From contig JAPDKB010000008.1 in assembly GCA_029258795.1 (NCBI GenBank), positions 32,001 to 96,000 on the forward strand: a stretch of DNA of 64,000 nucleotides, written 5' to 3'. Positions 21,611 through 46,042 of this stretch are shown piece after piece. The notes beneath the pieces were generated by a model, which saw only the letters and a program-made list of their open reading frames with translations, made no database searches and was not told where the DNA came from. A program made the translations under genes and the position numbers. How positions within the stretch are numbered: the stretch's first letter is position 1; every line of letters begins with the position of its first letter. This stretch comes from an archaeon (lineage in GTDB: Archaea > EX4484-52 > WAPT01).

Positions 21611-21997
21611 TGAAATGCAGTATGAGGTGATCGGTGAGTGGGAGGCAGTGACCTTTCAGAGACAAAGGACCGAATAACAGAGATTCTGAAAAAGAGAGGC
21701 GTTGGGTATGGTGACGAGGGCGGGTAACAGTAGTATGTTGGGACGTGAGGGTGAAATCGATGTCCTTGAGACAGATGATCTGATGCAAAAGAAAGCTCTA
21801 GTATGCTGGCTAGAGAAAATGATGCTAATCGCACTTTGGCACTCCAACGATCTTACAACAAGCGTTCTCAAAAAATAGAAGAGATGGAGATAATAAAAGA
21901 GAAAGGCAAGACAACGTCCAAAGAGATTCTAGAGATCATAGATCAAATAGAACAATTACTAGAGGTATTAAAACAAAAGGTTTCTAGTTCTTCTTAA
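21610..21997 (+). pseudogene. Frameshifted paralog of ORF 14671..15072
   Basis: Fragments in different frames: SDLSETKDRITEILKK and MLGREGEIDVLETDDLMQKKALVCWLEKM (from 21735), versus WDGEDTEMQRKITGSIRK and LLGSEGEIDTLEINLIRKIACRHWLQEL. Confidence 0.6.
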
Positions 21998-22220
21998 TTT
22001 TTTTGTATTTTGTAAGTTGGGTTTTATTTTTCGATTTATGGGAAAATTATCCAATTAAGTGGATTGTATCGTGTGTTGTGAGAAGGTTAGTCGAAATGAG
22101 AGATGAGTGTTGTCACGTTGGTGTGCTCAACGTAACAACAATAATCTATATAAAGATTTTTTCGCTCACAATATATCAACATATCACACGTGAGCTCCGC
22201 CCAGAAAAAGATGAAGGTGA

Positions 22221-22385
22221 GTGAACTTGGTCATATACGTTAAGGTGATATGCCCGAAATGCGGCGGCACCTTTGAATGGAAATGGGGTCGTCAAAAAGG
22301 CGTGTGCGATATATGTGAGGCGGAGCTCACGATAAGGGATGTCAAGCTTGCCAAAGGCGAGATTTTGAAGCTATTGCAAGGTTGA
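22221..22385 (+). CDS. Small zinc-ribbon protein (54 aa)
   Basis: Manual translation: CPKC...CDIC; below ORF-track length cutoff. Confidence 0.55.
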   Translation: MNLVIYVKVICPKCGGTFEWKWGRQKGVCDICEAELTIRDVKLAKGEILKLLQG

Positions 22386-22473
22386 TGAGATTTCTTGCAA
22401 AAACTGAAATTGGTTGTTGAAGTCATTGAAATTAATGTGTTTCGTGGATATTGGAAGCAAGCCAACACATTCT

Positions 22474-22680
22474 TCAAAAATCGTATCTTGGATCTCTCCC
22501 CCATCCACGGTACATTATACCTTCTATGTATACTCTAGGCGGAACGCTGCCTTCGAGGGGACCTTTAAGTAATTCTGCTCTTGAAAAAGCTGCATCTAAA
22601 GCCGCTTCCTCAGTAATGGGTCCACATATATTTTTCGCCCTTTCAAATACGTAGCTTTCCCTTCCAAACATTTTCAACAC
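22474..22680 (-). CDS. Hypothetical protein
   Basis: Short ORF directly downstream of 22693..23061. Confidence 0.4.
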   Translation of the reverse strand: MLKMFGRESYVFERAKNICGPITEEAALDAAFSRAELLKGPLEGSVPPRVYIEGIMYRGWGRDPRYDF

Positions 22681-22692
22681 CCCCGTTGAAAT

Positions 22693-23061
22693 TTAGCTTA
22701 TGTGAGATATCTCCAAACTCTTGCAAGTTTGGGCAAGATCCTGCTCAAGGTTTATAATGTTCTTGTAGACGATCTCTTCCAAAAACGCTCTCACCTGTTT
22801 GGCAATTTCAGGAATATGCTTTTCATAAAGTTTTTTATTTTTCTTAAGATCATTCTCGACATTAACTACCTGCCTGTAAAGATTTTCAAGACCCCATAGT
22901 TCCTCGATTTTATTGTGATTTGCTGCTCCCGCTTTTGCTATGTTAAGTGCTTCCTTAACCTCATTAACGGCACCCAGCACACCTTGGTAAGTGAGCCGGG
23001 GATTTTCAAGAGATTTGATCGCACCATACACCTTTTTTTCAGCAAGTCTATATTCAAACAT
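22693..23061 (-). CDS. Hypothetical helical protein
   Basis: SD-like GGGGGTG upstream; 122 aa ORF. Confidence 0.6.
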   Translation of the reverse strand: MFEYRLAEKKVYGAIKSLENPRLTYQGVLGAVNEVKEALNIAKAGAANHNKIEELWGLENLYRQVVNVENDLKKNKKLYEKHIPEIAKQVRAFLEEIVYKNIINLEQDLAQTCKSLEISHIS

Positions 23062-23206
23062 CCCACAACCACCCCCAAAATTTTCTTGCTCTTTATTATG
23101 GTATTAAAAGTATTTAAATGTTTCGTTACTTTTAAGTGGTTACAATTTAAAAAGGTTAAACATTTAAAGATGTCCTCAAAATTTAAAAAGGCAAGGGGTG
23201 TGTGGT

Positions 23207-23785
23207 ATGGCCAAAAGCAAGAAGGACGAGAACTTCGTTGACAAGGAGGATGAGATAAAGATAGAGAATGTTGTGGTTTCTGCTGACTTGAAAACACGTT
23301 TACCTCTTGAAAAGATAGCGATGGAACTGGAAGGAGCTGAATATGAACCCGAGAGCTTTCCCGGTCTGGTTTACAGAATAAAGGAGCCAAAAGCTTCCCT
23401 GCTGATTTTCACCACCGGTAAGATAATATGCGCGGGCACACGCTCTCAGGAAATCGCAATGCAGGCCATAAAAAAGGTCATTCAGGACCTCAGAAAGATC
23501 GGAATTGAGGTAAAGGGCGAGCCAGAACTGAAAGTGGAGAACCTTGTAGCTTCCGCTAATCTCAAGGCGAGATTCGATCTGAACCGCATAGTTTACGAGC
23601 TTGAGGATTGTGAGTACGAGCCGGAGCAGTTCCCGGGCTTGGTGCACAGGATGGAGGACCCACCTGTTGTGTTCCTCATCTTCAACTCGGGAAGGCTCGT
23701 GTGTACTGGCGCTAGGTCAAAAGAGGAAGTGAAGAGAGCCATAAACAACCTCAAGAAAGAGCTTGAGGCGATAGGTGCGTTCTAA
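23207..23785 (+). CDS. tbp: TATA-box binding protein
   Basis: Two repeats of ENxVxS...YEPExFPGLVxR...LIFxxGxxxCxG. Confidence 0.97.
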   Translation: MAKSKKDENFVDKEDEIKIENVVVSADLKTRLPLEKIAMELEGAEYEPESFPGLVYRIKEPKASLLIFTTGKIICAGTRSQEIAMQAIKKVIQDLRKIGIEVKGEPELKVENLVASANLKARFDLNRIVYELEDCEYEPEQFPGLVHRMEDPPVVFLIFNSGRLVCTGARSKEEVKRAINNLKKELEAIGAF

Positions 23786-23821
23786 ATTCTTCCCACTCAA
23801 AATATTTTTGGGTGAGATTTC

Positions 23822-24421
23822 ATGAAGTTGCTGTGTGCTTCAGATTACCATGCAAACCACCGCTTTCTTGAGAGCACTGTGGAGCACGCTGAAAAGCTGG
23901 AGCCGGATGTGTTCGTTTACTGTGGGGATTTCGTAATGCAGGAGTATGCGGAGGAACTCATAAAAAGGTTGGAGGAAGTTGGCGTGCCGGTGCTTGCGGT
24001 TGCCGGCAATCTTGATCTCGGTATCATCTATGAAAGCGAGATGTCGGAAATAGTGATGTACGGTTTGAGAGAGCTTAAGGGCTATCACTTTTTACTTGTG
24101 AGCGCCACCTATCCCTTCATTCTGGATGAAGCTCTTGCCGATGTTGAGGGTATAGACCCTTCCAAGCTGATATTCGTGACACATTACCCGCCAAAAGGTG
24201 TGCTTGACAAAATATGGAGCAACGAGCATGTTGGCTATGATGGTTATGCTGAATTTGATGAGAATGTCAAGCCAGCGCTCCACGTTTTCGGTCACATTCA
24301 TGAGGACAACGGGTTTGAGATTAAGAGCAACACGATTTTTGTTAATTGCGCTGCCACACCATCCAGAAAGATCTACTTGGTTGATCTGAAAAAAAGAGAG
24401 GTAAGGGATGTTAAGCTATGA
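23822..24421 (+). CDS. Calcineurin-like metallophosphoesterase
   Basis: SDYH, GD, GNLD, THYPP, GHIHE. Confidence 0.88.
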   Translation: MKLLCASDYHANHRFLESTVEHAEKLEPDVFVYCGDFVMQEYAEELIKRLEEVGVPVLAVAGNLDLGIIYESEMSEIVMYGLRELKGYHFLLVSATYPFILDEALADVEGIDPSKLIFVTHYPPKGVLDKIWSNEHVGYDGYAEFDENVKPALHVFGHIHEDNGFEIKSNTIFVNCAATPSRKIYLVDLKKREVRDVKL

Positions 24422-25353
24422 AGCAAAAGCTGAATGTGCCGCGGCTCTTCAGGGAGCGCTACAGGAGGATTCTTGGGGATGAGGTAAAGGTTCTTGTTGA
24501 TTACTGCTTCAAACCGCTCAGGAAAAGCATAAGGATCAACACGCTAAAGATTGATGTGGATGAATGTGTGAAAATGCTTGAATCCAAAGGGTGGGAACTG
24601 AAGCAGGTGCCATGGTGTAGCAACGGCTTCTGGGTGGAGAACAGAAATGAGGAGCAGCTTGGAAACACGCTGGAGCACTTTATGGGCTACTATTACGTGC
24701 AGGAAGCATCATCCATGATCCCTCCTATTGTGCTGCAGCCAGAGGAAAAGGATTTCGTGCTTGACATAGCTGCCGCGCCAGGCTCTAAGACCACGCAGAT
24801 GGCTGAAATGATGAAGAACAAGGGGTGTATAGTGGCAAACGACATCCAGATTCAGCGGATAAAGGTGTTGAGGTTCAATCTGGAGAAGCTCGGAGTCATA
24901 AACACCGTTGTGACGAGAATGGATGGAAGGAAGTTCATAAAGTTTAAGGAGAGGTTTGATAAAGTTCTGGTGGATGCCCCTTGCTCATCCGAGGGTATCA
25001 TGAGGAAGGACTGGAAAGCGTTTTCCAGATGGAACATCAAATTCATAAAGGAGATGGCAAAGCTGCAGAAAAAGCTGGTGGATGCTGCTGCGGTCACGCT
25101 TAAGAGAGGGGGTGTAATGGTTTACTCCACATGCACCATGTCTCCGGAGGAGAATGAGGCGGTGGTGGATTATGCTGTAAAGAAGCACGGGCTGGTGGTG
25201 GAGAAGGTAAAGGTTAAGGGGCTTAAAGCCAGGCACGGCATAACTGAATGGGAAAGCCAGCAATTCGATGAAAGTGTGAGGAACTGCTTGCGCATCTGGC
25301 CTCAGGATAATGACAGCGAGGGATTTTTCGTTGCAAAGTTGAGGAAGGAGTGA
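24418..25353 (+). CDS. NOL1/NOP2/Sun family RNA m5C methyltransferase
   Basis: QEASSM, AAAPGSKT, DAPCS, YSTCT...ENE. Confidence 0.93.
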   Translation: MKQKLNVPRLFRERYRRILGDEVKVLVDYCFKPLRKSIRINTLKIDVDECVKMLESKGWELKQVPWCSNGFWVENRNEEQLGNTLEHFMGYYYVQEASSMIPPIVLQPEEKDFVLDIAAAPGSKTTQMAEMMKNKGCIVANDIQIQRIKVLRFNLEKLGVINTVVTRMDGRKFIKFKERFDKVLVDAPCSSEGIMRKDWKAFSRWNIKFIKEMAKLQKKLVDAAAVTLKRGGVMVYSTCTMSPEENEAVVDYAVKKHGLVVEKVKVKGLKARHGITEWESQQFDESVRNCLRIWPQDNDSEGFFVAKLRKE

Positions 25354-25358
25354 GGGAA

Positions 25359-25826
25359 ATGAGCAAGCTGAAAATTATGAGTGAAGAGGAAAAGAGGGAG
25401 ATGCTGGACTATCTGGAGGAGAGGTTCGGGATAGATAGGGGTGTATTTAACGGTTACATTTTCATTAAGAGCGGGAGGAAGGTGTGGATAACAAACAGGG
25501 ATGTTGTGGAGAAGAACTTCTCCGGGATGAATGTGGAAGCTGCGGGCATGCTTTTTGTTAGATGGGAAAAAATTAAGGACAAGATCAAGATCACCACGAA
25601 TGCTGCGCAGATTTTTGGAAAGTACGCAACAAAGAACGTTGTGGAAGTGGATGAAATTCAGCTCCACCAAGTTCTATGCGGACTCAACCTGTATGATGTG
25701 GATGTTGATTGTGAAGACGGATACGTGCTTTTAAAGTATGGGGAACACATTCTTGGGGTGGGGTTGAAGCACGGGAACTTCATCAAAAACCTGATTCCAA
25801 AAGCAAGGAGAGTTAAAAAGCTTTAA
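25359..25826 (+). CDS. RsmF C-terminal/Nip7-like PUA-fold accessory protein
   Basis: Follows the m5C methyltransferase; GYVLL...LGVG...IKNLIPK. Confidence 0.65.
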   Translation: MSKLKIMSEEEKREMLDYLEERFGIDRGVFNGYIFIKSGRKVWITNRDVVEKNFSGMNVEAAGMLFVRWEKIKDKIKITTNAAQIFGKYATKNVVEVDEIQLHQVLCGLNLYDVDVDCEDGYVLLKYGEHILGVGLKHGNFIKNLIPKARRVKKL

Positions 25827-25930
25827 AACTTTGGCTTTAAAAGGGTGAATTGAAAGCAAAAAAATTCGCTTCATGGATTTTTCAGTTAGGACGCATGTTG
25901 TGTTTGAGCAGATAGCTCCATGTTCTTCCA

Positions 25931-26035
25931 AATCCCGGCTCCGGGGACAGTGCTTTCTCTCATCCTTCCTCTCCAGACGGAATTCTTATCCGTCGCATCC
26001 CCCATGAGAAAAGCGTCCATACCGGAGCCCGGATT
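25931..26035 (+). ncRNA. About 105-nt long irregular hairpin directly 5' of the tRNA-Gly-like gene
   Basis: Nested pairings AATCC/GGATT, GGCTCCGG/CCGGAGCC, GGAC/GTCC, GCTTT(C)TCTCAT/ATGAGAAAAGC, GACGGA/TCCGTC. Confidence 0.5.
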
Positions 26036-26039
26036 CCAT

Positions 26040-26110
26040 GCGGCCGTGGTGTAGTGGGATCACGCCCCGTATCCAGCGGGGAAACGCCGGTTCGATTCCG
26101 GCCGGCCGCA
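26040..26110 (+). tRNA. tRNA-Gly(UCC)-like gene with atypical anticodon loop
   Basis: Full cloverleaf (GCGGCCG/CGGCCGC, T-loop TTCGATT); anticodon loop TATCCAG has A33 and G38; no CCA. Confidence 0.6.
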
Positions 26111-26140
26111 AATTCATGAAGATGTGTGGAGGTGGAGAAG

Positions 26141-26305
26141 ATGGCACCTCCTGAGAAATGTGATGAGTGCGGTTCCACCAACCTCAAGAAAGTTGTGATC
26201 GCCAAAATACCAACAGGGCCAATGGTCATTGGAGGGAGCACACCGTTAATGGAGTTAGCAGTATATCAATGTCGAGAGTGTAAAAACATAATGGGTCCCA
26301 AGTAA
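26141..26305 (+). CDS. Small zinc-ribbon protein (54 aa)
   Basis: SD GGAGGTG; CDECG...CREC; manual translation. Confidence 0.7.
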   Translation: MAPPEKCDECGSTNLKKVVIAKIPTGPMVIGGSTPLMELAVYQCRECKNIMGPK

Positions 26306-26552
26306 AAGCAAGCTTTCAGACCATTTTATTTTTTCTTTTTATTTTTGGGAAATTTGTCCTGATTTTGGTTTTGGATGAATGTGGAAGGGGCTCAGTTCAG
26401 CAAAAGGTTTATAAATTTTCGAGATATGTGTGACTAAAGAGTAACAAAAGTTGTCGATGCTGTAAATAATGGATCCCGTGAAAAAGCGGGATACCTAATT
26501 CTGGTTTAAGTAGTGGACAGCGTGAAGATGGCTGTCTCTATCTGTCCCGCAT

Positions 26553-26599
26553 GCCCCTGTTCAGGTTTTCTTTCCCGGGTGCAATTCCCGGCAAGGGTC
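26553..26599 (+). ncRNA. Mini tRNA-like element (acceptor stem plus T-arm)
   Basis: GCCCCTG-15nt-CCGGG TGCAATT CCCGG-CAAGGGT; one mismatch in acceptor stem. Confidence 0.55.
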
Positions 26600-26624
26600 G
26601 GAAGATATTAAAAGGAGGTGAAGA

Positions 26625-26927
26625 ATGATGGTGTCGTACTGCGCAGCATCGGAAATGCTGAAGGGCACTTCCGAACTATGCGAGGTGTATCTGTTCGTTA
26701 TACTCTATCTATCTGGATTATTGGCCGCATACGTCATCATAAAGCTGGAGAGAGAGCCAGAGATTCTGGAAAAGCTGACGAACAAACTGAATAGGAAGAT
26801 AAGCTGGACTGGAAAGACGCTAGATAACATGGATGTTTGGGAAATAATAGTCACGAGCATCATTCTGATTTCGCCAGTGCTATTTGTTATTCCATTCCTG
26901 CTAGGGTTCTGCCCGCGCTACTGCTAG
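26625..26927 (+). CDS. Hypothetical two-TM membrane protein
   Basis: SD AGGAGGTGA; two hydrophobic helices. Confidence 0.7.
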   Translation: MMVSYCAASEMLKGTSELCEVYLFVILYLSGLLAAYVIIKLEREPEILEKLTNKLNRKISWTGKTLDNMDVWEIIVTSIILISPVLFVIPFLLGFCPRYC

Positions 26928-26967
26928 CATAAATGTCCGCTAAGCTTTTCCCCAAATTTTTTGTCAT

Positions 26968-27095
26968 GCCCCCGTAAGGTAGCCAGGCATCCTTCCTTCC
27001 GGCGGATGGTTCGTTTTTCTGGAAAAGGAGGAGGTGCTATCCCGCCGCCACCTCATTGCCGGAAGGAAACCCGGGTTCAAATCCCGGCGGGGGCA
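26968..27095 (+). ncRNA. tRNA-like RNA with the anticodon loop replaced by a branched insert of about 60 nt
   Basis: Acceptor GCCCCCG/CGGGGGC, D-arm, extended stem CCTTCCGGC/GCCGGAAGG, canonical T-arm; no BHB or 7-nt anticodon loop found. Confidence 0.65.
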
Positions 27096-27139
27096 CTTTT
27101 CGAAATTTTTGGTGAAAACAAAACCTTCCTATTTTTTGT

Positions 27140-27185
27140 GCGGCCGAAAAAGCACTGTGTCCGGGTGCAATTCCCGGCGGCCGCT
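27140..27185 (+). ncRNA. Mini tRNA-like element (acceptor stem plus T-arm)
   Basis: GCGGCCG-14nt-CCGGG TGCAATT CCCGG-CGGCCGC; perfect 7+5 bp. Confidence 0.7.
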
Positions 27186-27209
27186 GGAAAACTGTGAAAA
27201 AAGGAGGAG

Positions 27210-27488
27210 GTGAGAATTTTGAGGGAGAAAAAACCGGGGTCTGATTGGATATTGATATGGGTTGAAAAGGATATTAAGAAAGAAGGTATGTTGAAGAAAA
27301 TAATAGAGTATGCTAGGGAAAATGAGTTGATTGAGCAGGATAGAAAGTGGCTTCACCCTACAGAAATAGAGGAAGTAGTAGGAAAGGTGCTAAAACACAT
27401 AATGAAAGAAAAAGATCCTAACGCACCCCTGACACCAGAGAGGGCTGAAGAGCTCTATAACAAACACTATGTCACCCACGAACACTAA
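27210..27488 (+). CDS. Hypothetical protein
   Basis: Strong SD AGGAGGAGGTGA; 92 aa ORF. Confidence 0.65.
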   Translation: MRILREKKPGSDWILIWVEKDIKKEGMLKKIIEYARENELIEQDRKWLHPTEIEEVVGKVLKHIMKEKDPNAPLTPERAEELYNKHYVTHEH

Positions 27489-27594
27489 TCGTCACCCATT
27501 AATTTTTATTTTTTGAAATTTATGGGAAGAAATTCCCGTTTAATTGAGATTAAAAAATTTAAATGCGAGAAATAAAAAGCTGTGTGTTGTTGGT

Positions 27595-27716
27595 GGGCCG
27601 GTGGTCTAGCCTGGAAGGACGCTGGCTTCGCACGCCAGAGACCCCGGGTTCAAATGCTGCGGAGCAAGCATGAATATGCTGGAACTCCGCAGCTGAGAAT
27701 CCCGGCCGGTCCACCA
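27595..27716 (+). tRNA. tRNA-Ala(CGC) with 45-nt intron at 59/60 (27655-27699)
   Basis: G3:U70 pair, anticodon loop TTCGCAC, BHB, CCA. Confidence 0.93.
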
Positions 27717-27719
27717 CAT

Positions 27720-28394
27720 CTATTTCAGCACTTTTCCTGTCATTTTCCACCATATGAGAAGGTCAAGCTCTCCCACCTGCATTTTCTTGTGATGTGCTAT
27801 ACCACACAACAACTTTTCAAGCTTGAGATAATCTTTTCTTTTTGAAAGATTTGGATCCCACCAGAAGGGTATACACCCTTCTCGATAAAGCCAGTCGAGC
27901 ACATGCCTGTCAACTATGGCAACATCAAGCTGTCCCGTGTTTCTTAAAAAGTGACTTGCCTCCTTGTATCCAATACCCTTGATATTTTTAACCAGCCATT
28001 CCCGAACCATTGCACTTTCTTCCAGCTTGAGCACTTCCAGCACTTCATCCATCTTTTGCCATGCATCGATGATGTATTTTGCTTTTCTCTGATAAAACCT
28101 CACCCCACATTTTCTGAGAGCATTACGAATCCGTCGCTCATCCATATTGTCATTCTCCTTTTCAGCGAGCATCTTCTGAAACTTCAGACCCGCAATTGCT
28201 GACGAATTGGCGGCAGAGATGCAGAACGCAAGCTCGGAAAATATGGTGGCGTCAAACTCCGTATCAAAATATGGCTGAAAGTTGTGATGTGTTTTTCCTT
28301 TCCTTCCAAGCTCGATGAATTTAAGCACTCTATCTCTTATCGCTTTTATCACTTCAGGCCTCTCCTCCAGACGTTTGTAAGCATCGCAGGACAT
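27720..28394 (-). CDS. ogg: 8-oxoguanine N-glycosylase/DNA lyase
   Basis: ELAFCI..ANSSA, KGIGYKEASHFLRN, AIVDRHV, C-terminal TGKVLK; start uncertain. Confidence 0.92.
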   Translation of the reverse strand: MSCDAYKRLEERPEVIKAIRDRVLKFIELGRKGKTHHNFQPYFDTEFDATIFSELAFCISAANSSAIAGLKFQKMLAEKENDNMDERRIRNALRKCGVRFYQRKAKYIIDAWQKMDEVLEVLKLEESAMVREWLVKNIKGIGYKEASHFLRNTGQLDVAIVDRHVLDWLYREGCIPFWWDPNLSKRKDYLKLEKLLCGIAHHKKMQVGELDLLIWWKMTGKVLK

Positions 28395-28783
28395 ATTCTG
28401 ACAACTCCCTCAAAGTTCTCTATCTTTTTGTGCACTTCCATCAGCTCATCCATGCTGTTGCATACCACTTCCACTATCAAATTGTGATCACCACTGGTTA
28501 TATATATCACTTCCACTTCCTTAAATCCCTTGAGTTTTTCGTAAACCTCAACCAGTTTTTCTGGTTTCACATCAATGCCAGTTAGCGATATTGCCATTCC
28601 TGCTCTCACGGGATCGATTAGAGCTTTGTATCCCAGCACAACACCGCTTGCTTCAAGCTTCTCTATCCTTTTTCTTATTGCTGCCTCACTTACCTTAAAA
28701 AGCTTTGCCAAAGCCACATTCGGGATTCTTGCGTTTCTTATCAGTGCTCTTATCAGGAGTTTATCGTTTATTCTATTCTTCAT
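28349..28783 (-). CDS. Lrp/AsnC family transcriptional regulator
   Basis: N-terminal HTH (VSEAAIRKRIEKL...GVVLGY) and SGDHNL in the RAM domain. Confidence 0.9.
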   Translation of the reverse strand: MKNRINDKLLIRALIRNARIPNVALAKLFKVSEAAIRKRIEKLEASGVVLGYKALIDPVRAGMAISLTGIDVKPEKLVEVYEKLKGFKEVEVIYITSGDHNLIVEVVCNSMDELMEVHKKIENFEGVVRICPAMLTNVWRRGLK

Positions 28784-28873
28784 ATTTCGCATTTCGAACT
28801 TAAAGTTTTTAAATCTTTAAAATAATGTTTATATAAGATACCGAAATGTTCGAATTTGTGAAGGTGGAAAAGA

Positions 28874-29458
28874 ATGGAGAAGACAATGGAGAATCTTGTC
28901 AAGGCGTTCATAGGGGAAAGTCAGGCAAGGAATCGCTATAACATGTATGCAAAGATCGCCAAGAAAGAGGGATACGAGCAGATAGCAGAAATATTTGAAA
29001 TCACAGCAGAAAATGAAAGAGAGCATGCAAAATGGCTCATGAAAATGATCCAAGAGTTGCTCAAAAAAATGAATAAGGGTATGAGCAGCATTAAGGTGGA
29101 GGCTGAAGCCCCTCTGGTTGTGGGAAACACAGTGGAGAACCTGAGGGCGGCTATAGAGGGGGAGCACTATGAGAACAGTGAAATGTATCCTGAATTTGCA
29201 AGGATTGCGGAAGAGGAAGGGCTGAAAGATATTGGTGAAAGGTTGAGAGCAATAGCGAAAGCTGAAGAGCATCACGAGGAGCGTTACAGGAAGCTGTTTG
29301 AGCTTGTGGAAGCAGGTAAGTTCTTCAAGAGGGATAAGGAAGTTGTGTGGGTTTGCAGGAAGTGCGGCTATGTCCGTACTGGGACAGAACCTCCAGCCAA
29401 ATGTCCTTCGTGTGACCACCCATACAATTACTTTCAGGTTAAGTGTGAGGAGTTTTGA
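28874..29458 (+). CDS. rbr: Rubrerythrin
   Basis: GESQARNRY, NEREHA, GEHYE, AEEHHE, CRKCG...CPSC. Confidence 0.95.
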   Translation: MEKTMENLVKAFIGESQARNRYNMYAKIAKKEGYEQIAEIFEITAENEREHAKWLMKMIQELLKKMNKGMSSIKVEAEAPLVVGNTVENLRAAIEGEHYENSEMYPEFARIAEEEGLKDIGERLRAIAKAEEHHEERYRKLFELVEAGKFFKRDKEVVWVCRKCGYVRTGTEPPAKCPSCDHPYNYFQVKCEEF

Positions 29459-29583
29459 TTTTCCCTCTTCCTTCCATTTATTCTCTGGAGTCGTTTAAAG
29501 CATTTACATTTAATTAGTGAAAAAACTGATGTGCAGGAAAGAAATATATTTTTGTTCTGCCCACCTTAATCTTGGTGAGTGTC

Positions 29584-29754
29584 ATGGAGAACATAGCGGA
29601 GATTAAGGAGAGGATCTTGAAAGCTGGCCTCGGGGTTCAGACGGAAAAGGTGGAAAAAGATAATGAGCAGTTCTGCCCAGAGTGCGGTATGCGGCTTGTG
29701 CCAGCAGAGGGCTGTGTATTCTGTCCGTCATGCGGGTGGAGTCCGTGTAAATAG
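29584..29754 (+). CDS. Small zinc-ribbon protein resembling the C-terminus of class II ribonucleotide reductases
   Basis: CPECG..L...EGC..CPSCGWS.C. Confidence 0.65.
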   Translation: MENIAEIKERILKAGLGVQTEKVEKDNEQFCPECGMRLVPAEGCVFCPSCGWSPCK

Positions 29755-29767
29755 TTAGGGTGGTGTT

Positions 29768-30340
29768 ATGACGAGTGATCTTGAATGCATATTTTGCAAG
29801 ATAATAGAGAAGAAAATTCCTGCAGCGGTGATTTATGAGGATCCTTATGTCATCTCATTTCTTGATATAAATCCTCGATTTAAGGGGCATGCACTCGTCA
29901 TTCCAAAGGTGCACGTCTCAACCCTTGATGAGTTGGGGGATGAGGCTTTGGCACACCTTTTCGTGGTGGTGAAGCATGTTGCCAAGAATTTGAAGGAAAC
30001 GCTTGGCGCGGATGGCTACAACATCATAAGCAACAACGGAAGTGTTGCAGGACAGGTTGTTCCACACTTGCACATCCATGTTGTTCCGCGATACGCTGAT
30101 GAGAAGAAAGGAATTGGTTTTGAAGCCACATTCCCTGTTGATGAAGAGGCCAAGAACAAACTGCACGAAATTGCTGAAAAGGCCAAGATAAAGCACGAGA
30201 TAAAACCAGCATTTAGGAAAGATGATAAAGCAGATACGAGCGAAAAAGAGGAAAAGAAGGATGGAAAGGAAGAAAATAAAGAAGCATTACCATATGAAAG
30301 CGAGTATTTTGAGGACAACGGTGTGCCGAAGTTCAGGTGA
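29768..30340 (+). CDS. HIT family hydrolase
   Basis: CIFCKI, GHALVIPK, HLHIH. Confidence 0.93.
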   Translation: MTSDLECIFCKIIEKKIPAAVIYEDPYVISFLDINPRFKGHALVIPKVHVSTLDELGDEALAHLFVVVKHVAKNLKETLGADGYNIISNNGSVAGQVVPHLHIHVVPRYADEKKGIGFEATFPVDEEAKNKLHEIAEKAKIKHEIKPAFRKDDKADTSEKEEKKDGKEENKEALPYESEYFEDNGVPKFR

Positions 30341-30403
30341 GCTCTACTTTTTGCTTTTTTTATTTTAATGGGATTAATTTCCTAAAAAACAAAGAAAAAA
30401 AAA

Positions 30404-30619
30404 TCAAGAAATCTTCTTTAAGCGAATTTTGTAAATCTCTCCTTCATTGGTGATACTTGAAATACACCAGCTATAACCTTCCGGCCATATTTCTCCATTC
30501 ATCCCTATTATTTTGTTGTCCTTTACCCTCCCCCACGTTACGATCTCTCCCGCGCGTTTATCCTTGCTAACGGCACCGCATACCTCTAGCAAGCCAAGTA
30601 AGAACTCGTTATCCTCCAA
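30404..30619 (-). CDS. Hypothetical protein
   Basis: SD GGAGGTGA; downstream of the SPFH gene. Confidence 0.55.
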   Translation of the reverse strand: MEDNEFLLGLLEVCGAVSKDKRAGEIVTWGRVKDNKIIGMNGEIWPEGYSWCISSITNEGEIYKIRLKKIS

Positions 30620-30680
30620 TCTTACTCACCTCCATCCGGAATTGATCTTTTGCTAAAAGCGCATCTTCAAAAAAAGAGAA

Positions 30681-31697
30681 TTATTGTTGCGGCAGTATTA
30701 TTGGTGGTGCCACTGGCTCGGTAAGATTTACTCCGGGGTAGAAGTTAGATGGTGCAGGCACTATGATTATTGCGTTGTTCTCCGATTCCGCGAACTTCTG
30801 AAGCACCTGTAGATAGTACCACTGCACGTATTCTGGATTTCTTCTCAGCGATTCTCCAATTATCTGGTTAGCCTTTGCTATACCCTCTGCCTCAACCTGC
30901 TTTCTTTCTGCCTCTCTCTTTTCTTTCTCAAGAATGTACTGCATTCTCTGGGCTTCTTGTTGTGCCTGCAGTTTAGCCTCGATTGCATCCTTCAGTCGGG
31001 TTGGAAGTTCTATTTTTCTCAGGTACACTCCCGTGACATCAAAGTACTGTGATAGTCTCTTCTCCAGCTCATTGTGAATTGATGCTTCCACTTCACTTCT
31101 TTTTGATCCATAAATTTCCTCTGCGTCGTACTGGGAAATCACATCCCTCACCGCGCTTCTAATGGTTGCTATCTTCCATTGCTCCAGATAGTCCTGATTC
31201 TTGAACGTCTTTGCGATTTCTTCCAGCTTGTCCTTTCTTATCTTTGTCGCAACCGAGAGATCAATTCGAATCTCCAGTGCGTCCTTGCTCAGAACCACGA
31301 TGCTCGGATAGACAAGCCTAGAGGTAGCTATTTCCTCGGATTCGGCGGAAGCTGTGGCGGGTATCATTTCCTCCTTGCTTACAAAATCGACGGTTCTCAC
31401 ACCAACATAATAGATCTCCACGCTCTGTGTTAGTGGGTTCCTCCAGTGAATGCCGGGTTCTGCAGTACCTACGAATTTTCCGAACTCTTTGATCACCGCT
31501 TCTTCCGTTTGGTCTACCGTGTAGACTCCTAGCGCGCAGAAAGCTATTATGATTGCAATTGCACCAGCAATTACCCACTTCAACCACCATGGCCTTCGCT
31601 TTTTCTCTTCAGATCTTCTTTCACTCCCTCCACTCCAACCTTCAACTCTAGCTTCCTCCGGAGAAATAGGTCCATCCATCTCCAAGGGGTCTTCCAT
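30681..31697 (-). CDS. SPFH/prohibitin (band 7) membrane protein
   Basis: TM helix, EPGIHW..P, AIEAK...QQEA coiled coil. Confidence 0.9.
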   Translation of the reverse strand: MEDPLEMDGPISPEEARVEGWSGGSERRSEEKKRRPWWLKWVIAGAIAIIIAFCALGVYTVDQTEEAVIKEFGKFVGTAEPGIHWRNPLTQSVEIYYVGVRTVDFVSKEEMIPATASAESEEIATSRLVYPSIVVLSKDALEIRIDLSVATKIRKDKLEEIAKTFKNQDYLEQWKIATIRSAVRDVISQYDAEEIYGSKRSEVEASIHNELEKRLSQYFDVTGVYLRKIELPTRLKDAIEAKLQAQQEAQRMQYILEKEKREAERKQVEAEGIAKANQIIGESLRRNPEYVQWYYLQVLQKFAESENNAIIIVPAPSNFYPGVNLTEPVAPPIILPQQ

Positions 31698-31704
31698 CTT
31701 TCTA

Positions 31705-31763
31705 ACCTCCCCCGGGCCGCTATTCCCTGACTTGCGTCAGGGGCGACACCCGGTGTGGGAGGT
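31705..31763 (-). promoter_or_regulatory. GCAA-tetraloop leader hairpin that pairs with the SD of the SPFH gene
   Basis: ACCTCCC/GGGAGGT outer stem; CCCTGAC-GCAA-GTCAGGG apical stem. Confidence 0.5.
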
Positions 31764-32040
31764 AGAGAAGTATCACTACAATACTCATATCTTTCGTCTC
31801 GAGGTAAGAAGTCAGATTTTGTTTTTAACAGAAACCGTTTTTATCTAAACCTTTATATTTTTTACTATTTGGTGGTTCTTTCAGGTTAACATGATCTTCA
31901 ATCTCTCTCTGGCTAACAAATAAATTCTTGACTGAGGATATACTTACTGAACATCAATAAAAGTTGTGGAACGTGTGGGAGCTGTTTCTTGTCCAAGTAG
32001 CTTTCAGAATATGATTGATGTGTCCCGCTCTGTCCCGTGT

Positions 32041-32090
32041 GCTCCCGTGCGAGCCCTGCTTGTGCCCGGGTTCAAATCCCGGCGGGAGAT
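32041..32090 (+). ncRNA. Mini tRNA-like element (acceptor stem, one small arm, T-arm)
   Basis: CTCCCG-18nt-CCGGG TTCAAAT CCCGG-CGGGAG. Confidence 0.55.
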
Positions 32091-32517
32091 GATATGTGGC
32101 GGGAGATGAATTTTGGAATGCCGCCGGGGGGCGCCAGCCCGGTGGTTTGTGACCGCCTACTTTTCGGCGGTACTGGCGCACAAAAGTTTGTAATGGTTAG
32201 AGGGGGGTGGATATGGAAGCTCCAGGCTTCGAGCTAATATTCGCAATAATTGGACTTTTAGCAACTCTGTGGTTATGAAAAAAGCGATTACAAGAGAGGA
32301 GGTGAAAATGTGCTGAGGCGAAGGGATGGAGGCCCCATCGACAGAACGGGCCAATGAATTATAGTGATTCTAATGACTCTCACTTTTGTGTACATACTAC
32401 TGGGTGCTGTGAATATTCTTAGAGAGCTCATGAGCTAAACAATTTCCCAATTTTTTATTTTTCATAATTTGGGAAATATTTCCCATAAAATGAAAAAATA
32501 AAAAATGGGAAGGAAGT

Positions 32518-33255
32518 TCAGGTTGTGAAGTGTCCCTCCTCCGCAAACCTGACAAGCTGCATCTTCTTTTCTACCTCTTCCATCAGCTTTCCTTTCATAT
32601 TTTCGACATCGCGTTTGATGGAGCTCTCTATTCCCTCAAGCCGCTTGAACAGCATAACGTCCGTGTTCGCTACGGACATTTTGAGATGGTGGGTTAATCT
32701 TTCCACCGCCATCATTCTCAAAGTATCTCTGAATACGTCTGGAACCTCATTTCCATTTTCTATGAGCCCCTCAAATTCTTGAGTCAGGTCTACCCGGACT
32801 TTATCCAGAATATCCCGCAACATGGCTTCGCCCAAAAGGGACTTTATTTGCTTCACCACCTCTTCGCTCAGCAGGTATCTCAGTGTGTGGTAAGCATCCC
32901 CAACCATGACAGGTATCTCTTTCTCCGATACTGCTCTGCACCTCATCTCCCTCGCTTTTTCCAGCAGAATCTCTGCTTCCGTGTAATCCATGGGAACTGG
33001 TGCTGCCAGAATTTTAGCATCGGACACTACGACACCCTTTTCTTTTATGTACGTTGCAGCAATCTCTATTATTTTGTTTATTTCCCAGACATCCTTGTCC
33101 AATTTGTTTTTCCGGCAGAACTCCGCCAATTCCAAGATATCCACAGCATATCTTTCCTCCAGCAGCGCTCTCAAAGAAAGCACTTCCTCCTCGCTACTCC
33201 TTACATCTTCCACTACCGGTTTCTCAAACTCTACTTCCTCTCCACTCCCTACCAA
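32518..33255 (-). CDS. Hypothetical helical protein
   Basis: SD AGGAGGTGA favours the in-frame TTG at 33255 over the ORF-track start at 33378. Confidence 0.7.
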   Translation of the reverse strand: MVGSGEEVEFEKPVVEDVRSSEEEVLSLRALLEERYAVDILELAEFCRKNKLDKDVWEINKIIEIAATYIKEKGVVVSDAKILAAPVPMDYTEAEILLEKAREMRCRAVSEKEIPVMVGDAYHTLRYLLSEEVVKQIKSLLGEAMLRDILDKVRVDLTQEFEGLIENGNEVPDVFRDTLRMMAVERLTHHLKMSVANTDVMLFKRLEGIESSIKRDVENMKGKLMEEVEKKMQLVRFAEEGHFTT

Positions 33256-33274
33256 ACTCTCACCTCCTGAAGCC

Positions 33275-33322
33275 AGGGGCGCTCCGGACTCGAACCGGAG
33301 AAAAAACATCCCGTTGCGCCCC
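33275..33322 (-). ncRNA. Mini tRNA-like element (acceptor stem plus T-arm)
   Basis: On minus strand GGGGCGC-16nt-TCCGG TTCGAGT CCGGA-GCGCCCC; perfect 7+5 bp with canonical T-loop. Confidence 0.72.
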
Positions 33323-33519
33323 ATGAAGATAAGTTGAGACGAGGTAGAGCATAGGTAGAAGTAGACCATCCCATACAAACCGTCTCAAGAGCCCTTGTAG
33401 TTATTTGACAGCCCCCTATTTCGGGTTTAAAATTTTTAATCATTGCTGAAAGAATTGAGAGTGTAAAACGCCAAAGTAAAAAATTTAAGGTGCATAAATG
33501 ATAAGCTGTGTGATGCCAC

Positions 33520-36500
33520 ATGCAGTATGACTTCCACAAAATCGAGAAGGAGGTAAAGGAGTACTGGGAAAAGAACAAAATTCCGGAAAGGATTGCTGAC
33601 TTCAATGCCAACCTAAAGACACGTAAAAAGAAATTCTATCTGCTTGATGGACCGCCTTATGCCAACGCCCCTCCTCACGCTGGACATGCCATGACCATAG
33701 TTTTCAAGGATCTCTGGGGTAAGTTCAAGTTCATGAACGGCTATGCTGTCTGGTTCCAGCCGGGTTTTGACTGTCACGGCCTGCCGATTGAGAATATGGT
33801 TGAGAAGAAGTTTGGGATAGGATCAAAGAAGGATATAGAGAACAAGATTGGTGTTGCCAAGTTCATTCAGATGTGTAAAGAATATGCTACTCAAAACCTG
33901 AAAGAATGGATGGAATACTACAAAGATCTTGGAGCATGGAAGGGCTGGCTCACGCCTTACTTAACTTACGAGCCATACTACATAGAGAGCATATGGTGGA
34001 CCGTCAAAAAGCTTTTCGATGAAGGGTTGATGGTTAAGGGCAAGAAGCCCATACACTGGTGCCCGAGATGCCAGACATCCATTTCAGGGTATGAGGCTAC
34101 CGACTCCTACAAAAACGTTACCGACCCCTCCATTTATGTTAAGTTCAAGGTGAAGGATAGGGATAACGAGTACCTGCTCGCATGGACCACAACACCTTGG
34201 ACGCTTCCGGCTAACGTTGCGCTTGTTGTTCATCCTGATGAGACCTACGTTAAGATTGAGGTTGATGGCGAGTATTTAATTCTCGCTGAAAAACGCCTTA
34301 AGGATGTGATGGAAAGAGCTGGCATCAAGGACTACAAGGTTATTGAGAAGTTTGAGGGTAAGAAGCTGGATGGTGTGGAGTACGAGCCATTAATGCCAGA
34401 GCTTCAGACGCAGCAGGAGGCTGCCAAGAGTGGAAAAGCGCACAGAATTGTTATGTCCGTCCCTATTCTGAAGAAGGTTGTTGCCTCCAAGATAAAAGCA
34501 AAGAAAGAGGTTGAGGAGGAAGAGGAAGGAGAAGCTTTTGGTCACATGGTTACCATGGATGCCGGTACAGGCATAGTGCACTGTGCTCCCGGCCATGGAG
34601 CAGAAGACAACAAGCTTGGTGCTTATTATGGCTTGCCAGTAATCTCGCCTGTTGATGATGAGGGCAAGTTCACAAGCGAAGCTGGTTGGCTGGAAGGAAA
34701 GTTTGTGAAGGATGCGGATAAGGAAATAATAGAGCATCTTAAGCAAAAAGGTCTGCTATTCCACGCTGAAAGGATAGTTCACAGCTATCCTCTCTGCTGG
34801 AGGTGCAAAACCCCCCTCATTTACCGCACCACAGACCAATGGTTCTTCCTCATAGACCCAATAAAGGAGATGATGCTCAAATTCAATGAAGAGACAAGAT
34901 GGCTTCCTGACTTTGCAAAGGAGCGCATGAGGAACTGGGTCAAGGACGAGGCGGACTGGTGCATATCGACGCAGAGATACTGGGGCGCGCCAATCCCAAT
35001 CTGGGAGTGTAAGAACTGCGGGCACATGATCGCTGTGGGAAGCAAGAAGGAGCTTGAGGAGAAAATGGTGAACGATGTCAAGCTTGATGACCTCCACAAG
35101 CATGTTGTGGATAAGGTTGTGCTGAAATGTGAGAAGTGTGGAGGGGAGATGAAGAGAATTCCGGACATAATAAACATCTGGGTGGAGAGCGGCGTTGCTC
35201 CATGGGCTTCGCTCGGCTATCCTTATTATGATGGCGGTCTACTCAAAAAGCTGTGGCGCGTTGATCTGGTGGATGAGTCCCAGGATCAAATAAGGGGTTG
35301 GTTCCACGCCATGCTGTTCATGTCCGCTGCCACGTTCAAGGAGAGACCATATAACACCGTTTGCATGAACGGCTGGGTGCTGGATGAAAAAGGAGAGAAG
35401 ATGAGCAAGAGCTTGGGGAACGTGATTTCAGCGGAAGAGGCATTCGAGCAGCTCGGCGCTGATGTGCTCCGCTTGTACGTTTGCTACAGCACAGCTCCGT
35501 GGGAGACACATAAGTTCAGCATGAAGGAAGCAAAGGAACTCTTCCGCTTCATGAACATAATGGTCAATCTTGTCAACTTTGTGGACATGTATGGTGTAGA
35601 TATCAATGTTGATGGCGGCATGCCCAATCTCACCCGTGTTGAGGACAGATGGCTTCTTTCGAGGCTTAACTCCATAATAAGGAAGGTTGAAAGCCACATT
35701 GAAAACTTCCACTTCCATGCAGCAGCAAGAGAGCTTGTGGAGTTCGTGATGGAGGACTTCTCCCGCCTCTATCTGAAGCTGGTAAAGGAGAGGTATGATA
35801 AAAATGAGGAAAGAGAAGCGATGGATCATGTAATATCCAAGACAATCTTTGATGTGGTGAGAATGCTCGCACCCTTCTGCCCGTACATAAGCGAGTACAT
35901 CTATCTGAAGCTGTTCAAGGATGCTGTTAAGGAGGATTCAGTACACATGTTGGAGTGGCCCGTGGCTAATGAGAAGCTGATTGATGAGAAGTTGGAAAGG
36001 GAGATGGAGCTCGTTATGAAGATTGTGGAGGAACTCAATTCAATCAGGCAGAGCAAGGGCATAAGGTTGAGGTGGCCTCTTGAAGAAGTTGTGCTCTCGT
36101 CCAACGAGATCACTGCAAGGATTGGGGATGACATCAAGGAAGTCATAAAGACGCTTGCAAACGTGAAAAAGGTTGTTGTTAAGGATGTTGAGCTGAGCTA
36201 TGCGCTGAAGCCCAGATATGATGTGATAGGGCCGAAGTTTGGAGAGAAAACAAGAGAGGTTGTTGCCCTCCTGCAGAAACAAAGGCCTGAGGAGCTTTTG
36301 AACCGGCTTGAGGAAGAGGGGGCTGTAATGGTTGGTGAGTTTGAAATAACAAAAGAGATGGTGGATGTTGATGTCAAGCTTGAAAACGTGCCTGCTGGCT
36401 ATGAAGGTGGAGTTGTTGACGGCACAGCTGTGCTTCTCAAGGTTGAGATCGCGCCTGAACTGAAGGAAGAAGGGATAGCCAGAGAGTTCATAAGAAGAGT

Positions 36501-36705
36501 GCAGCTGGCAAGGAAGGAACTTGGCTTAAGGTTTGAGGATGAGGCAAAGCTGCTTGTCGATGGCATGTCTCCTTTCATCAACAAGTGGAAGGATTTGATT
36601 GAGGAAGAGACGAACACGAAAATTGTTGTTAGCGAGCTGAAAGAAGAGAGTGCTGAGAAGTTTGAGTTTGAAGAGGTCAAGCTTATTTTCAGGGTGGAAA
36701 AATAG
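33520..36705 (+). CDS. ileS: Isoleucyl-tRNA synthetase
   Basis: DGPPYAN..PHAGH, GFDCHGLP, WTTTPWTLP, GTGIVH.APGHG, DWCIS.QRYWG, DQIRGWF, KMSKS. Confidence 0.97.
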   Translation: MQYDFHKIEKEVKEYWEKNKIPERIADFNANLKTRKKKFYLLDGPPYANAPPHAGHAMTIVFKDLWGKFKFMNGYAVWFQPGFDCHGLPIENMVEKKFGIGSKKDIENKIGVAKFIQMCKEYATQNLKEWMEYYKDLGAWKGWLTPYLTYEPYYIESIWWTVKKLFDEGLMVKGKKPIHWCPRCQTSISGYEATDSYKNVTDPSIYVKFKVKDRDNEYLLAWTTTPWTLPANVALVVHPDETYVKIEVDGEYLILAEKRLKDVMERAGIKDYKVIEKFEGKKLDGVEYEPLMPELQTQQEAAKSGKAHRIVMSVPILKKVVASKIKAKKEVEEEEEGEAFGHMVTMDAGTGIVHCAPGHGAEDNKLGAYYGLPVISPVDDEGKFTSEAGWLEGKFVKDADKEIIEHLKQKGLLFHAERIVHSYPLCWRCKTPLIYRTTDQWFFLIDPIKEMMLKFNEETRWLPDFAKERMRNWVKDEADWCISTQRYWGAPIPIWECKNCGHMIAVGSKKELEEKMVNDVKLDDLHKHVVDKVVLKCEKCGGEMKRIPDIINIWVESGVAPWASLGYPYYDGGLLKKLWRVDLVDESQDQIRGWFHAMLFMSAATFKERPYNTVCMNGWVLDEKGEKMSKSLGNVISAEEAFEQLGADVLRLYVCYSTAPWETHKFSMKEAKELFRFMNIMVNLVNFVDMYGVDINVDGGMPNLTRVEDRWLLSRLNSIIRKVESHIENFHFHAAARELVEFVMEDFSRLYLKLVKERYDKNEEREAMDHVISKTIFDVVRMLAPFCPYISEYIYLKLFKDAVKEDSVHMLEWPVANEKLIDEKLEREMELVMKIVEELNSIRQSKGIRLRWPLEEVVLSSNEITARIGDDIKEVIKTLANVKKVVVKDVELSYALKPRYDVIGPKFGEKTREVVALLQKQRPEELLNRLEEEGAVMVGEFEITKEMVDVDVKLENVPAGYEGGVVDGTAVLLKVEIAPELKEEGIAREFIRRVQLARKELGLRFEDEAKLLVDGMSPFINKWKDLIEEETNTKIVVSELKEESAEKFEFEEVKLIFRVEK

Positions 36706-45997: not shown

Positions 45998-46042
45998 AGG
46001 GTAGGAAACGGTTACTGGTGCTTCTGGATTGAAAAATTCGAA

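Follow-up and report, generated by a model that had tools for sequence, protein, structure and literature searches.

Four short elements, designated E1 to E4, were found within 6.8 kb of an archaeal metagenome-assembled genome (G000; 1.17 Mb in 23 contigs), each representing the acceptor stem and T-arm, or 'top half', of a transfer RNA (tRNA). These elements, hereafter referred to as mini-tRNAs, lie in a window of 64,000 nucleotides (nt) corresponding to positions 32001-96000 of contig C3, and all coordinates refer to this window unless another contig is named (Table 1). The elements are real, tRNA-derived and structurally constrained. Their favoured interpretation, to which a probability of about 0.4 is assigned, is that they are minihelices which would work in cis as t-element-like processing signals, recognized by RNase P and tRNase Z, for the mRNAs of accessory genes.

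All four elements were recovered, by reading of the sequence and by an independent descriptor scan, at the coordinates and with the stems and loops given in an original prediction for this DNA, the intervals of which include the discriminator base; excluding that base, the elements measure 45-49 nt. They share a common plan, consisting of a 7-nt 5' strand, a linker of 14-18 nt, a G+C-rich stem of 5 bp with a 7-nt loop, and the complement of the 5' strand. In every copy the 3' strand of the T-stem adjoins the 3' strand of the acceptor without a gap, and the elements thus display the tRNA-type arrangement of a 7-bp acceptor stacked on a 5-bp T-stem with a 7-nt T-loop, the loops having T as their first base and A as their fifth. 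A full cloverleaf is not present, as just 11-18 nt of linker separate the acceptor 5' strand from the T-stem among these four elements and two related copies described below. The acceptor pairs at all seven positions in E2 and E4 and at six of seven in E3, the linker of which can form a hairpin, and minimum free energy (MFE) folding yields the minihelix for E2, E4 and (together with the linker hairpin) E3. E1 represents the weakest copy, its acceptor containing one C-A mismatch and one G-U pair.

The expectation that such elements would escape tRNA finders proved correct, since neither ARAGORN nor the Rfam tRNA model (RF00005) returned a match on any of the four. The mascRNA-menRNA model (RF01684) gave no match for E1, E2 or E4, and its match to E3 (20.9 bits, E = 3.2) did not reach the gathering score of 42.5.

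Conservation, covariation and kinship of the copies

Two other species of the same genus, represented by the genomes G001 and G002 (~0.9 Mb each), were each found to carry a single mini-tRNA. When the six copies are compared, 97.2% of cells are paired and seven of the twelve pairs have changed on both sides, a result equalled by 0 of 500 shuffles and to be set against 38-53% paired cells in slid controls; these figures carry the caveat that the elements were initially found through their pairing, and the covarying changes do not represent independent events because the six members derive from three related genomes.

The arrangement of the locus in the three species provides a second line of evidence. 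In G001 and G002 the gene order is PUA-domain open reading frame (ORF), mini-tRNA, homologue of ORF92, tRNA-Ala and Ogg, the mini-tRNA being followed by an extra Cys-rich mini-ORF in G001 and by two hairpins in G002. The same interval in G000 comprises, in order, tRNA-Gly* (an atypical tRNA gene), ORF59, E1, ORF100, tRNAx (a degenerate tRNA-like gene), E2, ORF92 and tRNA-Ala, and E2 corresponds by synteny to the one mini-tRNA that each of the other two species carries. The acceptor GCGGCCG/CGGCCGC is common to E2 and its orthologues, with all seven pairs kept (a single G-C pair having become G-U in G002), and one pair of the T-stem is swapped between E2 and the orthologues (CCGGG/CCCGG versus CCCGG/CCGGG), while the whole linker, three of the seven loop bases and the flanks have diverged. 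Furthermore, the intergenic DNA of the three genomes cannot be aligned except at tRNA-Ala and at a promoter/terminator motif. No full-length tRNA with an E2-type acceptor, which might have acted as a donor for gene conversion, was found in G001 or G002, where the pattern matches are mini-tRNAs alone. Judged from these comparisons, the retention of the E2 locus in three species represents the best evidence that the minihelix itself is constrained. The proposal that selection acts on structure is therefore upheld, in that the stems covary and an orthologue has been kept in two congeners while linker, loop and flanks diverged. The discriminator base differs between the orthologues, being T, G and C across the three genomes.

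The copies also resemble each other outside their stems. Directly 5' of E1, E3 and both congener copies lies a pyrimidine-rich leader with the motif CTnTGTCCCnnnTG, of which E2 and E4 have a degenerate form, and the linker of E1, TTCAGGTTTTCTTT, resembles that of the G002 copy, TCAGGTTGTGTTT. In addition, the genus as represented by these three genomes contains just two copies of a GCGCCAG...CTGGCGC hairpin, one located ~40 nt 3' of E3 and the other ~60 nt 3' of the mini-tRNA of G002. Because the copies are homologous beyond their stems, the differences between their acceptors reflect covariation and not inheritance from four parent tRNAs. Local gene conversion is shown by the identity of the E1 and E2 T-arms and by a stretch of 22 nt (T-arm plus 3' strand) that E3 has in common with tRNAx. 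It had been recognized that each element might prove to be a recent neutral deletion of a specific tRNA; the part of this concerning origin holds, as the elements are clearly tRNA-derived, but they do not represent four independent recent deletions, given their shared leader and linker homology and their persistence across species.

Of note, a 12-nt direct repeat, GGCGGGAGATGA, occurs at 32081-32109, its two units being spaced by TATGT, and duplicates the 3' acceptor strand of E3 together with its trailer.

Derivation from tRNA genes

To place the elements among the tRNAs of their host, an inventory of 42 rows was compiled by removing candidate T-loop introns in silico and re-running ARAGORN. 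Such an intron, of 24-52 nt and in many cases similar to others in the set, had to be removed in 29 of the 42 rows, and without this step ARAGORN reports 27 tRNA genes, four of which lie on contig C11, which is probably foreign. Many host tRNAs score below the Rfam threshold. The inventory omits tRNA-Gly*, whose start ARAGORN places one base early, although both ARAGORN and Rfam find this gene directly. A CCA is encoded in 36 of the 42 rows.

All host glycine isoacceptors (GCC, TCC and CCC) possess a GCGCCGG/CCGGCGC acceptor followed by ACCA, and both glutamate isoacceptors (TTC and CTC) a GCCCCCG/CGGGGGC acceptor followed by ACCA. Since every host glycine isoacceptor has an acceptor other than that of tRNA-Gly*, and ACCA, the latter is an extra gene. 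It is atypical in its anticodon loop, UAUCCAG, which places A at position 33, where U is near-universal in tRNAs, and it has neither an encoded CCA nor a T-loop intron. The second tRNA-like gene, tRNAx, exhibits a Glu-like acceptor, D region and T-arm, and its anticodon arm is a long hairpin without a workable anticodon loop; ARAGORN forces it into a Gly-GCC tRNA with a 57-nt intron. Glu-like stems with compensated changes are also seen in E1 and E3. No CCA is encoded by any of the six mini-tRNAs, by tRNA-Gly* or by tRNAx. The locus is thus a graded series, leading from tRNA-Gly* through tRNAx to bare top halves, in which the acceptor stem and T-arm alone are always intact.

Extent of the family

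Chance occurrence was assessed with a descriptor specifying a 7-bp acceptor with at most one mismatch, a linker of 8-24 nt, a 5-bp T-stem with at least three G-C pairs and a T[TG]C[AG]ANN loop. Whereas 20 dinucleotide shuffles averaged 2.2 matches (range 0-5), the whole genome gave ten, comprising E1 to E4, four matches inside ordinary tRNAs (two of the host and two on C11) and two that are chance-like. A possible further T-arm fragment at 25925-25939 was discarded, as its three mismatches place it within chance expectation.

A covariance model was built from the six copies and searched in all 42 species genomes that represent the phylum in the collection, the searches at order, class and phylum level covering the same 42. 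Scores of 48.7-55 bits were confined to the six copies (four in G000 and one each in G001 and G002), which are the model's own training sequences, and nine further matches, at no more than 34.2 bits, represent the 3' portions of normal tRNAs, where one strand of the anticodon stem is fortuitously complementary to the acceptor. Nothing that scores above such tRNA 3' portions is present in the remaining 39 genomes of the phylum, and the model returned no match at 28 metagenome loci where relatives of the upstream PUA-domain ORF are encoded. When 185,579 species, each represented by one genome, were searched with a Gly-type pattern, 52 loci were obtained, of which only the G001 and G002 copies are minihelices, the other 50 being mostly pieces of ordinary tRNAs together with a few other sequences. 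In viral contigs the Gly-type pattern gave three matches, all of them ordinary tRNAs, and an E4-type pattern gave none; phage and plasmid records showed no similarity to positions 26000-27250, and a literature search on elements of this kind in such an archaeon found nothing relevant.

The family is therefore a small, genus-restricted local cluster, composed of one old locus and three extra copies in G000. The notion of a genome-wide family placed upstream of ORFs is not sustained, there being four copies within 6.8 kb, one in each congener and none in the other 39 genomes.

Position relative to adjacent genes

Placement just 5' of ORFs led by a Shine-Dalgarno (SD) sequence was observed, as proposed, for three of the four elements. 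The distance from discriminator to likely start codon is 25 nt for E1 (ATG 26625), 24 nt for E2 (GTG 27210; 33 nt if TTG 27219, which is better spaced, is used instead) and 19 nt for E4 (TTG 33255), and the 3' acceptor strand of tRNA-Gly* is likewise followed by an SD-led ORF at 30 nt. Thus, four of the five tRNA-like units (tRNA-Gly*, E1, E2 and E4, but not E3) have an SD and ORF within 60 nt downstream. The corresponding figures are 6 of 42 for the rows of the tRNA inventory and 1392 of 20000 for positions chosen at random, so that close spacing of this kind is much commoner for the tRNA-like units than for ordinary tRNAs.

Contrary to what had been suggested, the ORFs in question are not all orphans. 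ORF92 has homologues in both congeners, at 41-43% identity, and in no other genome (3 of 41 genomes, including its own), while ORF245 does conform to the description, since no homologue was detected in 41 genomes or in a search of 5.8 billion proteins at near lengths, and the Atlas gave no usable match; ORF245 is also absent upstream of IleRS in G001. Searches of Pfam, PHROGs and NCBIfam returned nothing meaningful for the ORFs adjoining the elements, beyond a weak Zn_ribbon_8 match for ORF59.

No T-run terminator was found between element and ORF. Weak TATA-like boxes are located upstream of the elements at about the distance seen in host tRNA genes, and E1, E4 and the mini-tRNAs of both congeners are also preceded, at a distance of 85-150 nt, by stronger promoters of the AAAnTTTAAA type. 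Pairing between leader and SD, such as would enclose the minihelix and be relieved by its cleavage, was seen in MFE folds of E2, E4, the G001 copy and tRNA-Gly*, and was rejected as a composition effect after failing a shuffle control; the fraction of shuffled leaders whose duplex energy is at least as good is 0.75 for E1, 0.31 for E2, 0.28 for E3, 0.20 for E4, 0.56 for tRNA-Gly*, 0.03 for the G001 copy and 0.76 for the G002 copy.

Of the ordinary tRNA genes, the CCA-bearing tRNA-Val(TAC) on contig C4 and tRNA-Leu(TAA) on contig C5 are followed ~20-25 nt 3' by SD-led ORFs of 181 and 122 codons, respectively. This suggests that tRNA-mRNA co-transcripts may be normal in this compact genome, and because these two genes closely precede SD-led ORFs, tRNA 3' processing may already define the 5' ends of some G000 mRNAs. 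Both are decoding tRNAs with CCA, whereas E1 to E4 cannot decode.

A candidate processing signal for accessory mRNAs

RNase P, tRNase Z and the CCA-adding enzyme all recognize the same part of a tRNA, its acceptor stem and T-arm, and CCA acts as an anti-determinant for tRNase Z. As the original prediction presupposed, enzymes reading this half are encoded in G000, namely RNase P RNA (133.6 bits), RNase Z (359 bits) and CCA-adding enzyme (420 bits), and it is because the conserved part of the elements is the part which these three read that a cis-acting role of the t-element type is favoured. In the proposed mechanism, the element would be transcribed with its tRNA-like, pyrimidine-rich leader, and transcription would read on into the small accessory ORF with no terminator intervening. 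RNase P would cut at the 5' end of the minihelix and tRNase Z after the discriminator, the latter being possible because no CCA is encoded; indeed, most tRNAs of this genome encode a CCA, and its absence from the elements fits cleavage at this point. An mRNA with a short leader of 19-33 nt bearing the SD would thereby be released, along with a minihelix RNA of 45-49 nt, a potential substrate for tailing by the CCA-adding enzyme. That the element is transcribed, that its transcript extends into the ORF and that the two cuts are made is what we infer from the arrangement of the locus. A broader version of this proposal, possible though somewhat doubtful, is that, in this lineage of small-genome vent archaea, the top half may form a portable expression module (tRNA-type promoter and leader plus minihelix) which would have been duplicated in front of newly acquired small genes, providing each with a trimmed mRNA and a CCA-tailable RNA.

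Several observations weigh against a role in processing. Gene conversion can keep the stems of the G000 copies paired without selection for function, and the family is tiny and limited to one genus. E1 contains the C-A mismatch noted above and is folded at minimum free energy without its acceptor stem (z = -0.29), and both E1 and E2 have TGCAATT instead of the T-loop motif GGTTCRANYCC. E3 is located 123 nt from the nearest ORF (21 codons, at 32213) and the G002 copy about 105 nt from a start codon, with hairpins intervening in both cases, and because 6 of the 42 ordinary tRNA rows also closely precede an SD-led ORF, the adjacency partly reflects a compact genome. Finally, other predicted tRNA-like elements of Haloferax are reportedly not cleaved in vitro.

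The statement that there is no archaeal equivalent needs to be revised, since Haloferax volcanii possesses a t-element upstream of 5S rRNA that is described as being cut by tRNase Z and has been engineered as a processing signal (PMC4326828, PMC3296008), and one of these accounts describes processing by RNase P as well as tRNase Z (PMC4326828), RNase P cleavage applying to t-elements in general; the 5' end of the RNA that follows is set by such cuts. As presented there, the Haloferax element is similar to E1 to E4 in being archaeal, non-decoding, tRNA-like and directly upstream of another RNA, yet it precedes an rRNA and its cleavage has been shown in vitro and exploited in vivo, whereas E1 to E4 precede protein ORFs and are putative signals predicted from sequence. 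E1 to E4 lack a D-arm and an anticodon arm and belong to a small paralogous family. They show a non-decoding tRNA-like fold beside another RNA or ORF, as t-elements do.

A second parallel is provided by plant mitochondria, where t-elements located upstream of mRNA 5' ends or downstream of mRNA 3' ends are described as having ends that coincide with mapped transcript ends, an outcome attributed to RNase Z and RNase P, and where the released t-elements carry non-encoded C residues (PMC1920247, Forner et al. 2007). The T-arm motif GGTTCRANYCC, which was used to find these t-elements (PMC1920247), is found in E3, in E4 and in the mini-tRNA of each congener, whereas E1 and E2 have GGTGCAATTCC. The plant elements described there are tRNA-like with a T-arm motif, but they are organellar, have non-canonical cloverleaves and have had their termini mapped experimentally.

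Alternative explanations

The alternative that survives best, although it is considered unlikely, is that the elements are functionless relics, i.e., tRNA pseudogenes that arose by internal deletion from extra, possibly imported, Gly- or Glu-like genes, were duplicated locally, and remain paired through conversion and youth; their placement would then reflect new genes having landed beside dead tRNA genes or having borrowed their promoters. Several features of the locus agree with this, for it is rich in degenerate tRNA-like genes (tRNA-Gly* with its A33, and tRNAx), gene conversion is evident from the identical E1 and E2 T-arms and the 22 nt shared by E3 and tRNAx, and E1 is already losing its pairing. 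Furthermore, all of the four copies except E2 are confined to G000, which has the largest genome of the genus (1.17 Mb versus about 0.9 Mb), and the host Gly (GCC, TCC, CCC) and Glu (TTC, CTC) sets are complete without these genes. Relics do not readily account for the E2 lineage, however, which has stayed in place in three species with its acceptor pairs kept and one T-stem pair compensated amid intergenic DNA that cannot be aligned, and for which G001 and G002 hold no donor tRNA with an E2-type acceptor; covariation among paralogues that have a common leader and linker homology is likewise unexpected for decaying DNA.

It is a good deal less probable that the minihelix is itself the product, in the form of a released, CCA-tailed RNA of 45-50 nt acting in trans, either as a decoy or sponge or as a mascRNA-like regulator, with binders of tRNA top halves, e.g., tRNA-targeting nucleases or modification enzymes, as possible targets. 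The structural conservation shown by the covariation agrees equally with this reading, and the loose coupling of E3 and the G002 copy to an ORF, with extra conserved hairpins, would be readily accommodated, as would the presence of a CCA-adding enzyme in a genome where most tRNAs encode CCA. The mascRNA and MEN-beta tRNA-like RNAs are cut from a longer transcript by RNase P and RNase Z and then CCA-tailed; unlike E1 to E4, mascRNA is eukaryotic, derives from the 3' end of a long non-coding RNA and retains a reduced anticodon arm. E3 is weakly similar to the mascRNA model (20.9 bits), but the match is far under threshold. No candidate partner is encoded nearby, the family searches of the adjoining ORFs having given nothing, and the variation of the discriminator among the three orthologues argues against aminoacylation or a specific partner that reads this base.

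It is improbable that the elements are recombination sites or cassette boundaries, each tRNA-like element and its ORF forming an inserted cassette or marking an integration scar. ORF59, ORF100 and ORF245, each directly 3' of a tRNA-like element, have no detected counterpart at the syntenic loci of G001 and G002 (as judged, for ORF59 and ORF100, from those loci), the gene content between the PUA-domain ORF and tRNA-Ala is different in each of the three species, and the direct repeat GGCGGGAGATGA is located at the 3' end of E3. Partial tRNA genes are described as commonly representing integration scars, the attR copies reported comprising the 3' part only, as a direct repeat of about 44 bp of the intact gene at the opposite end, and flanking integrase elements of 9-23 kb (PMC9897764). 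Like these, E1 to E4 are tRNA-derived fragments beside accessory DNA that tRNA finders misread or miss. In contrast to attR copies, they keep both acceptor strands, including the 5' strand, and have no long repeat partner (the longest repeat being 22 nt); neither an integrase nor another mobile-element gene is present among the 20 ORFs scanned (18772-36705), and no similarity to phage or plasmid records (positions 26000-27250) and no minihelix in viral contigs was found.

That the mini-tRNAs are pieces of split tRNAs, each to be joined to a separately encoded middle fragment, is scarcely credible despite the known tri-split tRNA-Gly of Caldivirga and the heavy use of splicing in this genome (29 of 42 rows requiring removal of a T-loop intron), since the Gly and Glu isoacceptors are complete with encoded CCA, the host Gly acceptor is uniform and of another sequence, and the Rfam matches limited to D and anticodon arms all lie in long-arm genes of the Ser/Leu type.

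Neighbouring features and genome setting

The coordinates of the mini-tRNAs and of the features mentioned in this study are collected in Table 1. The region between 23 and 37 kb encodes housekeeping functions, namely TBP, a metallophosphoesterase, an RsmB-type methyltransferase with a separate PUA-domain ORF, Ogg, Lrp, rubrerythrin, HIT, a Band-7 protein and IleRS, and small ORFs without family matches are located between these genes. DNA contigs from four runs reproduce the assembly here, with 0 differences in the run that is its possible source; in another DNA run, two contigs span E3 and E4 with four differences each, the joints being too ambiguous for indel calls.

Table 1. Positions of the mini-tRNAs and of associated features (window coordinates, except for the final two rows)
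Feature	Position	Strand	Description
E1 mini-tRNA	26553-26598 (26599 with discriminator C)	+	GCCCCTG, 15-nt linker, CCGGG-TGCAATT-CCCGG, CAAGGGT; 51.7 bits (covariance model)
E2 mini-tRNA	27140-27184 (27185 with discriminator T)	+	GCGGCCG, 14-nt linker, CCGGG-TGCAATT-CCCGG, CGGCCGC; 53.1 bits
E3 mini-tRNA	32041-32089 (32090 with discriminator)	+	GCTCCCG, 18-nt linker, CCGGG-TTCAAAT-CCCGG, CGGGAGA; 48.7 bits
E4 mini-tRNA	33276-33322 (from 33275 with discriminator T)	-	GGGGCGC, 16-nt linker, TCCGG-TTCGAGT-CCGGA, GCGCCCC; 55 bits
E1 5' leader	26520-26552	+	Pyrimidine-rich; contains CTnTGTCCCnnnTG; resembles host tRNA gene leaders
tRNA-Gly*(TCC)	26040-26110	+	Full cloverleaf, 55.5 bits (Rfam); acceptor GCGGCCG, same as E2
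tRNAx	26968-27097	+	tRNA-Glu-like; acceptor and T-arm intact; no CCA
ORF59	26141-26305	+	3' of tRNA-Gly*; zinc-ribbon-like, 54 aa from ATG 26141; weak Zn_ribbon_8 match
ORF100	26625-26927	+	3' of E1; SD GGAGGTGA at 26614-26621; no family match
ORF92	27219-27488	+	3' of E2; 89 aa from TTG 27219 or 92 aa from GTG 27210
ORF245	32518-33255	-	3' of E4; SD GGAGGTGA at 33260-33267 (-)
Hairpin GGCGG...CCGCC	32098-32125	+	3' of E3
Hairpin GCGCCAG...CTGGCGC	32131-32179	+	3' of E3
T-rich/palindrome repeat	22022-22061, 26329-26368, 27506-27545, 32453-32492		Also in G001 and G002
tRNA-Ala(CGC)	27595-27717		T-loop intron
tRNA-Pro(TGG)	20096-~20215		T-loop intron
tRNA-Pro(TGG)	~14240-14360		T-loop intron
tRNA-Glu(TTC)	46040-46170	-	T-loop intron
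Bulged hairpin	C4:81489	+	GGCCGTG-cct-CCTCC-TTCGAGG-GGAGG-CACGGTT
Bulged hairpin	C4:86496	-	GAGCCGG-tcc-GAGGG-TGCAAGT-CCCTC-CCGGCTC

An intergenic repeat, in which a T-rich run is followed by palindromes of the type TTTGGGAAAT..ATTTCCC, was observed at gene ends just before promoters and may represent a terminator or a regulator site. With regard to the tRNA genes of the window, the orthologues of tRNA-Ala in G001 and G002 are intron-free, and the two tRNA-Pro(TGG) genes have nearly identical 3' flanks (accagagccggagagaattgaatcta...), which suggests that they may constitute a segmental duplication, its copies about 6 kb apart. Elsewhere in the genome, two 12-bp hairpins with a 3-nt bulge and T-loop-like loops of 7 nt are located 5 kb apart on opposite strands of contig C4. 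Contig C11 carries a tight Thr-Gly-Tyr-Thr tRNA cluster that is intron-free and bacterial-looking, and contigs C10, C12 and C17 have a G+C content of 28-31%, compared to ~44% in the remaining genome; these four contigs are probably foreign to the bin.

Implications

The locus documents the decay of tRNA genes when just the processing half is needed. Together with the tRNAs that carry T-loop introns, the mini-tRNAs also show that standard finders under-annotate genomes of this kind, as ARAGORN reports 27 tRNA genes compared to the 42 rows of the inventory. If the elements are processed, they would extend the logic of t-elements and tRNA punctuation from organelles and one haloarchaeal rRNA to protein-coding genes in a free-standing archaeal genome, and archaeal RNase P, tRNase Z and CCA-adding enzyme would be provided with a natural substrate of minimal size (42-49 nt). 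Should the top half indeed constitute a portable expression module, the series from full tRNA to minihelix would amount to a natural experiment in which the top half alone is under selection, and archaeal protein-coding genes would be seen, for the first time, to be punctuated by t-elements.

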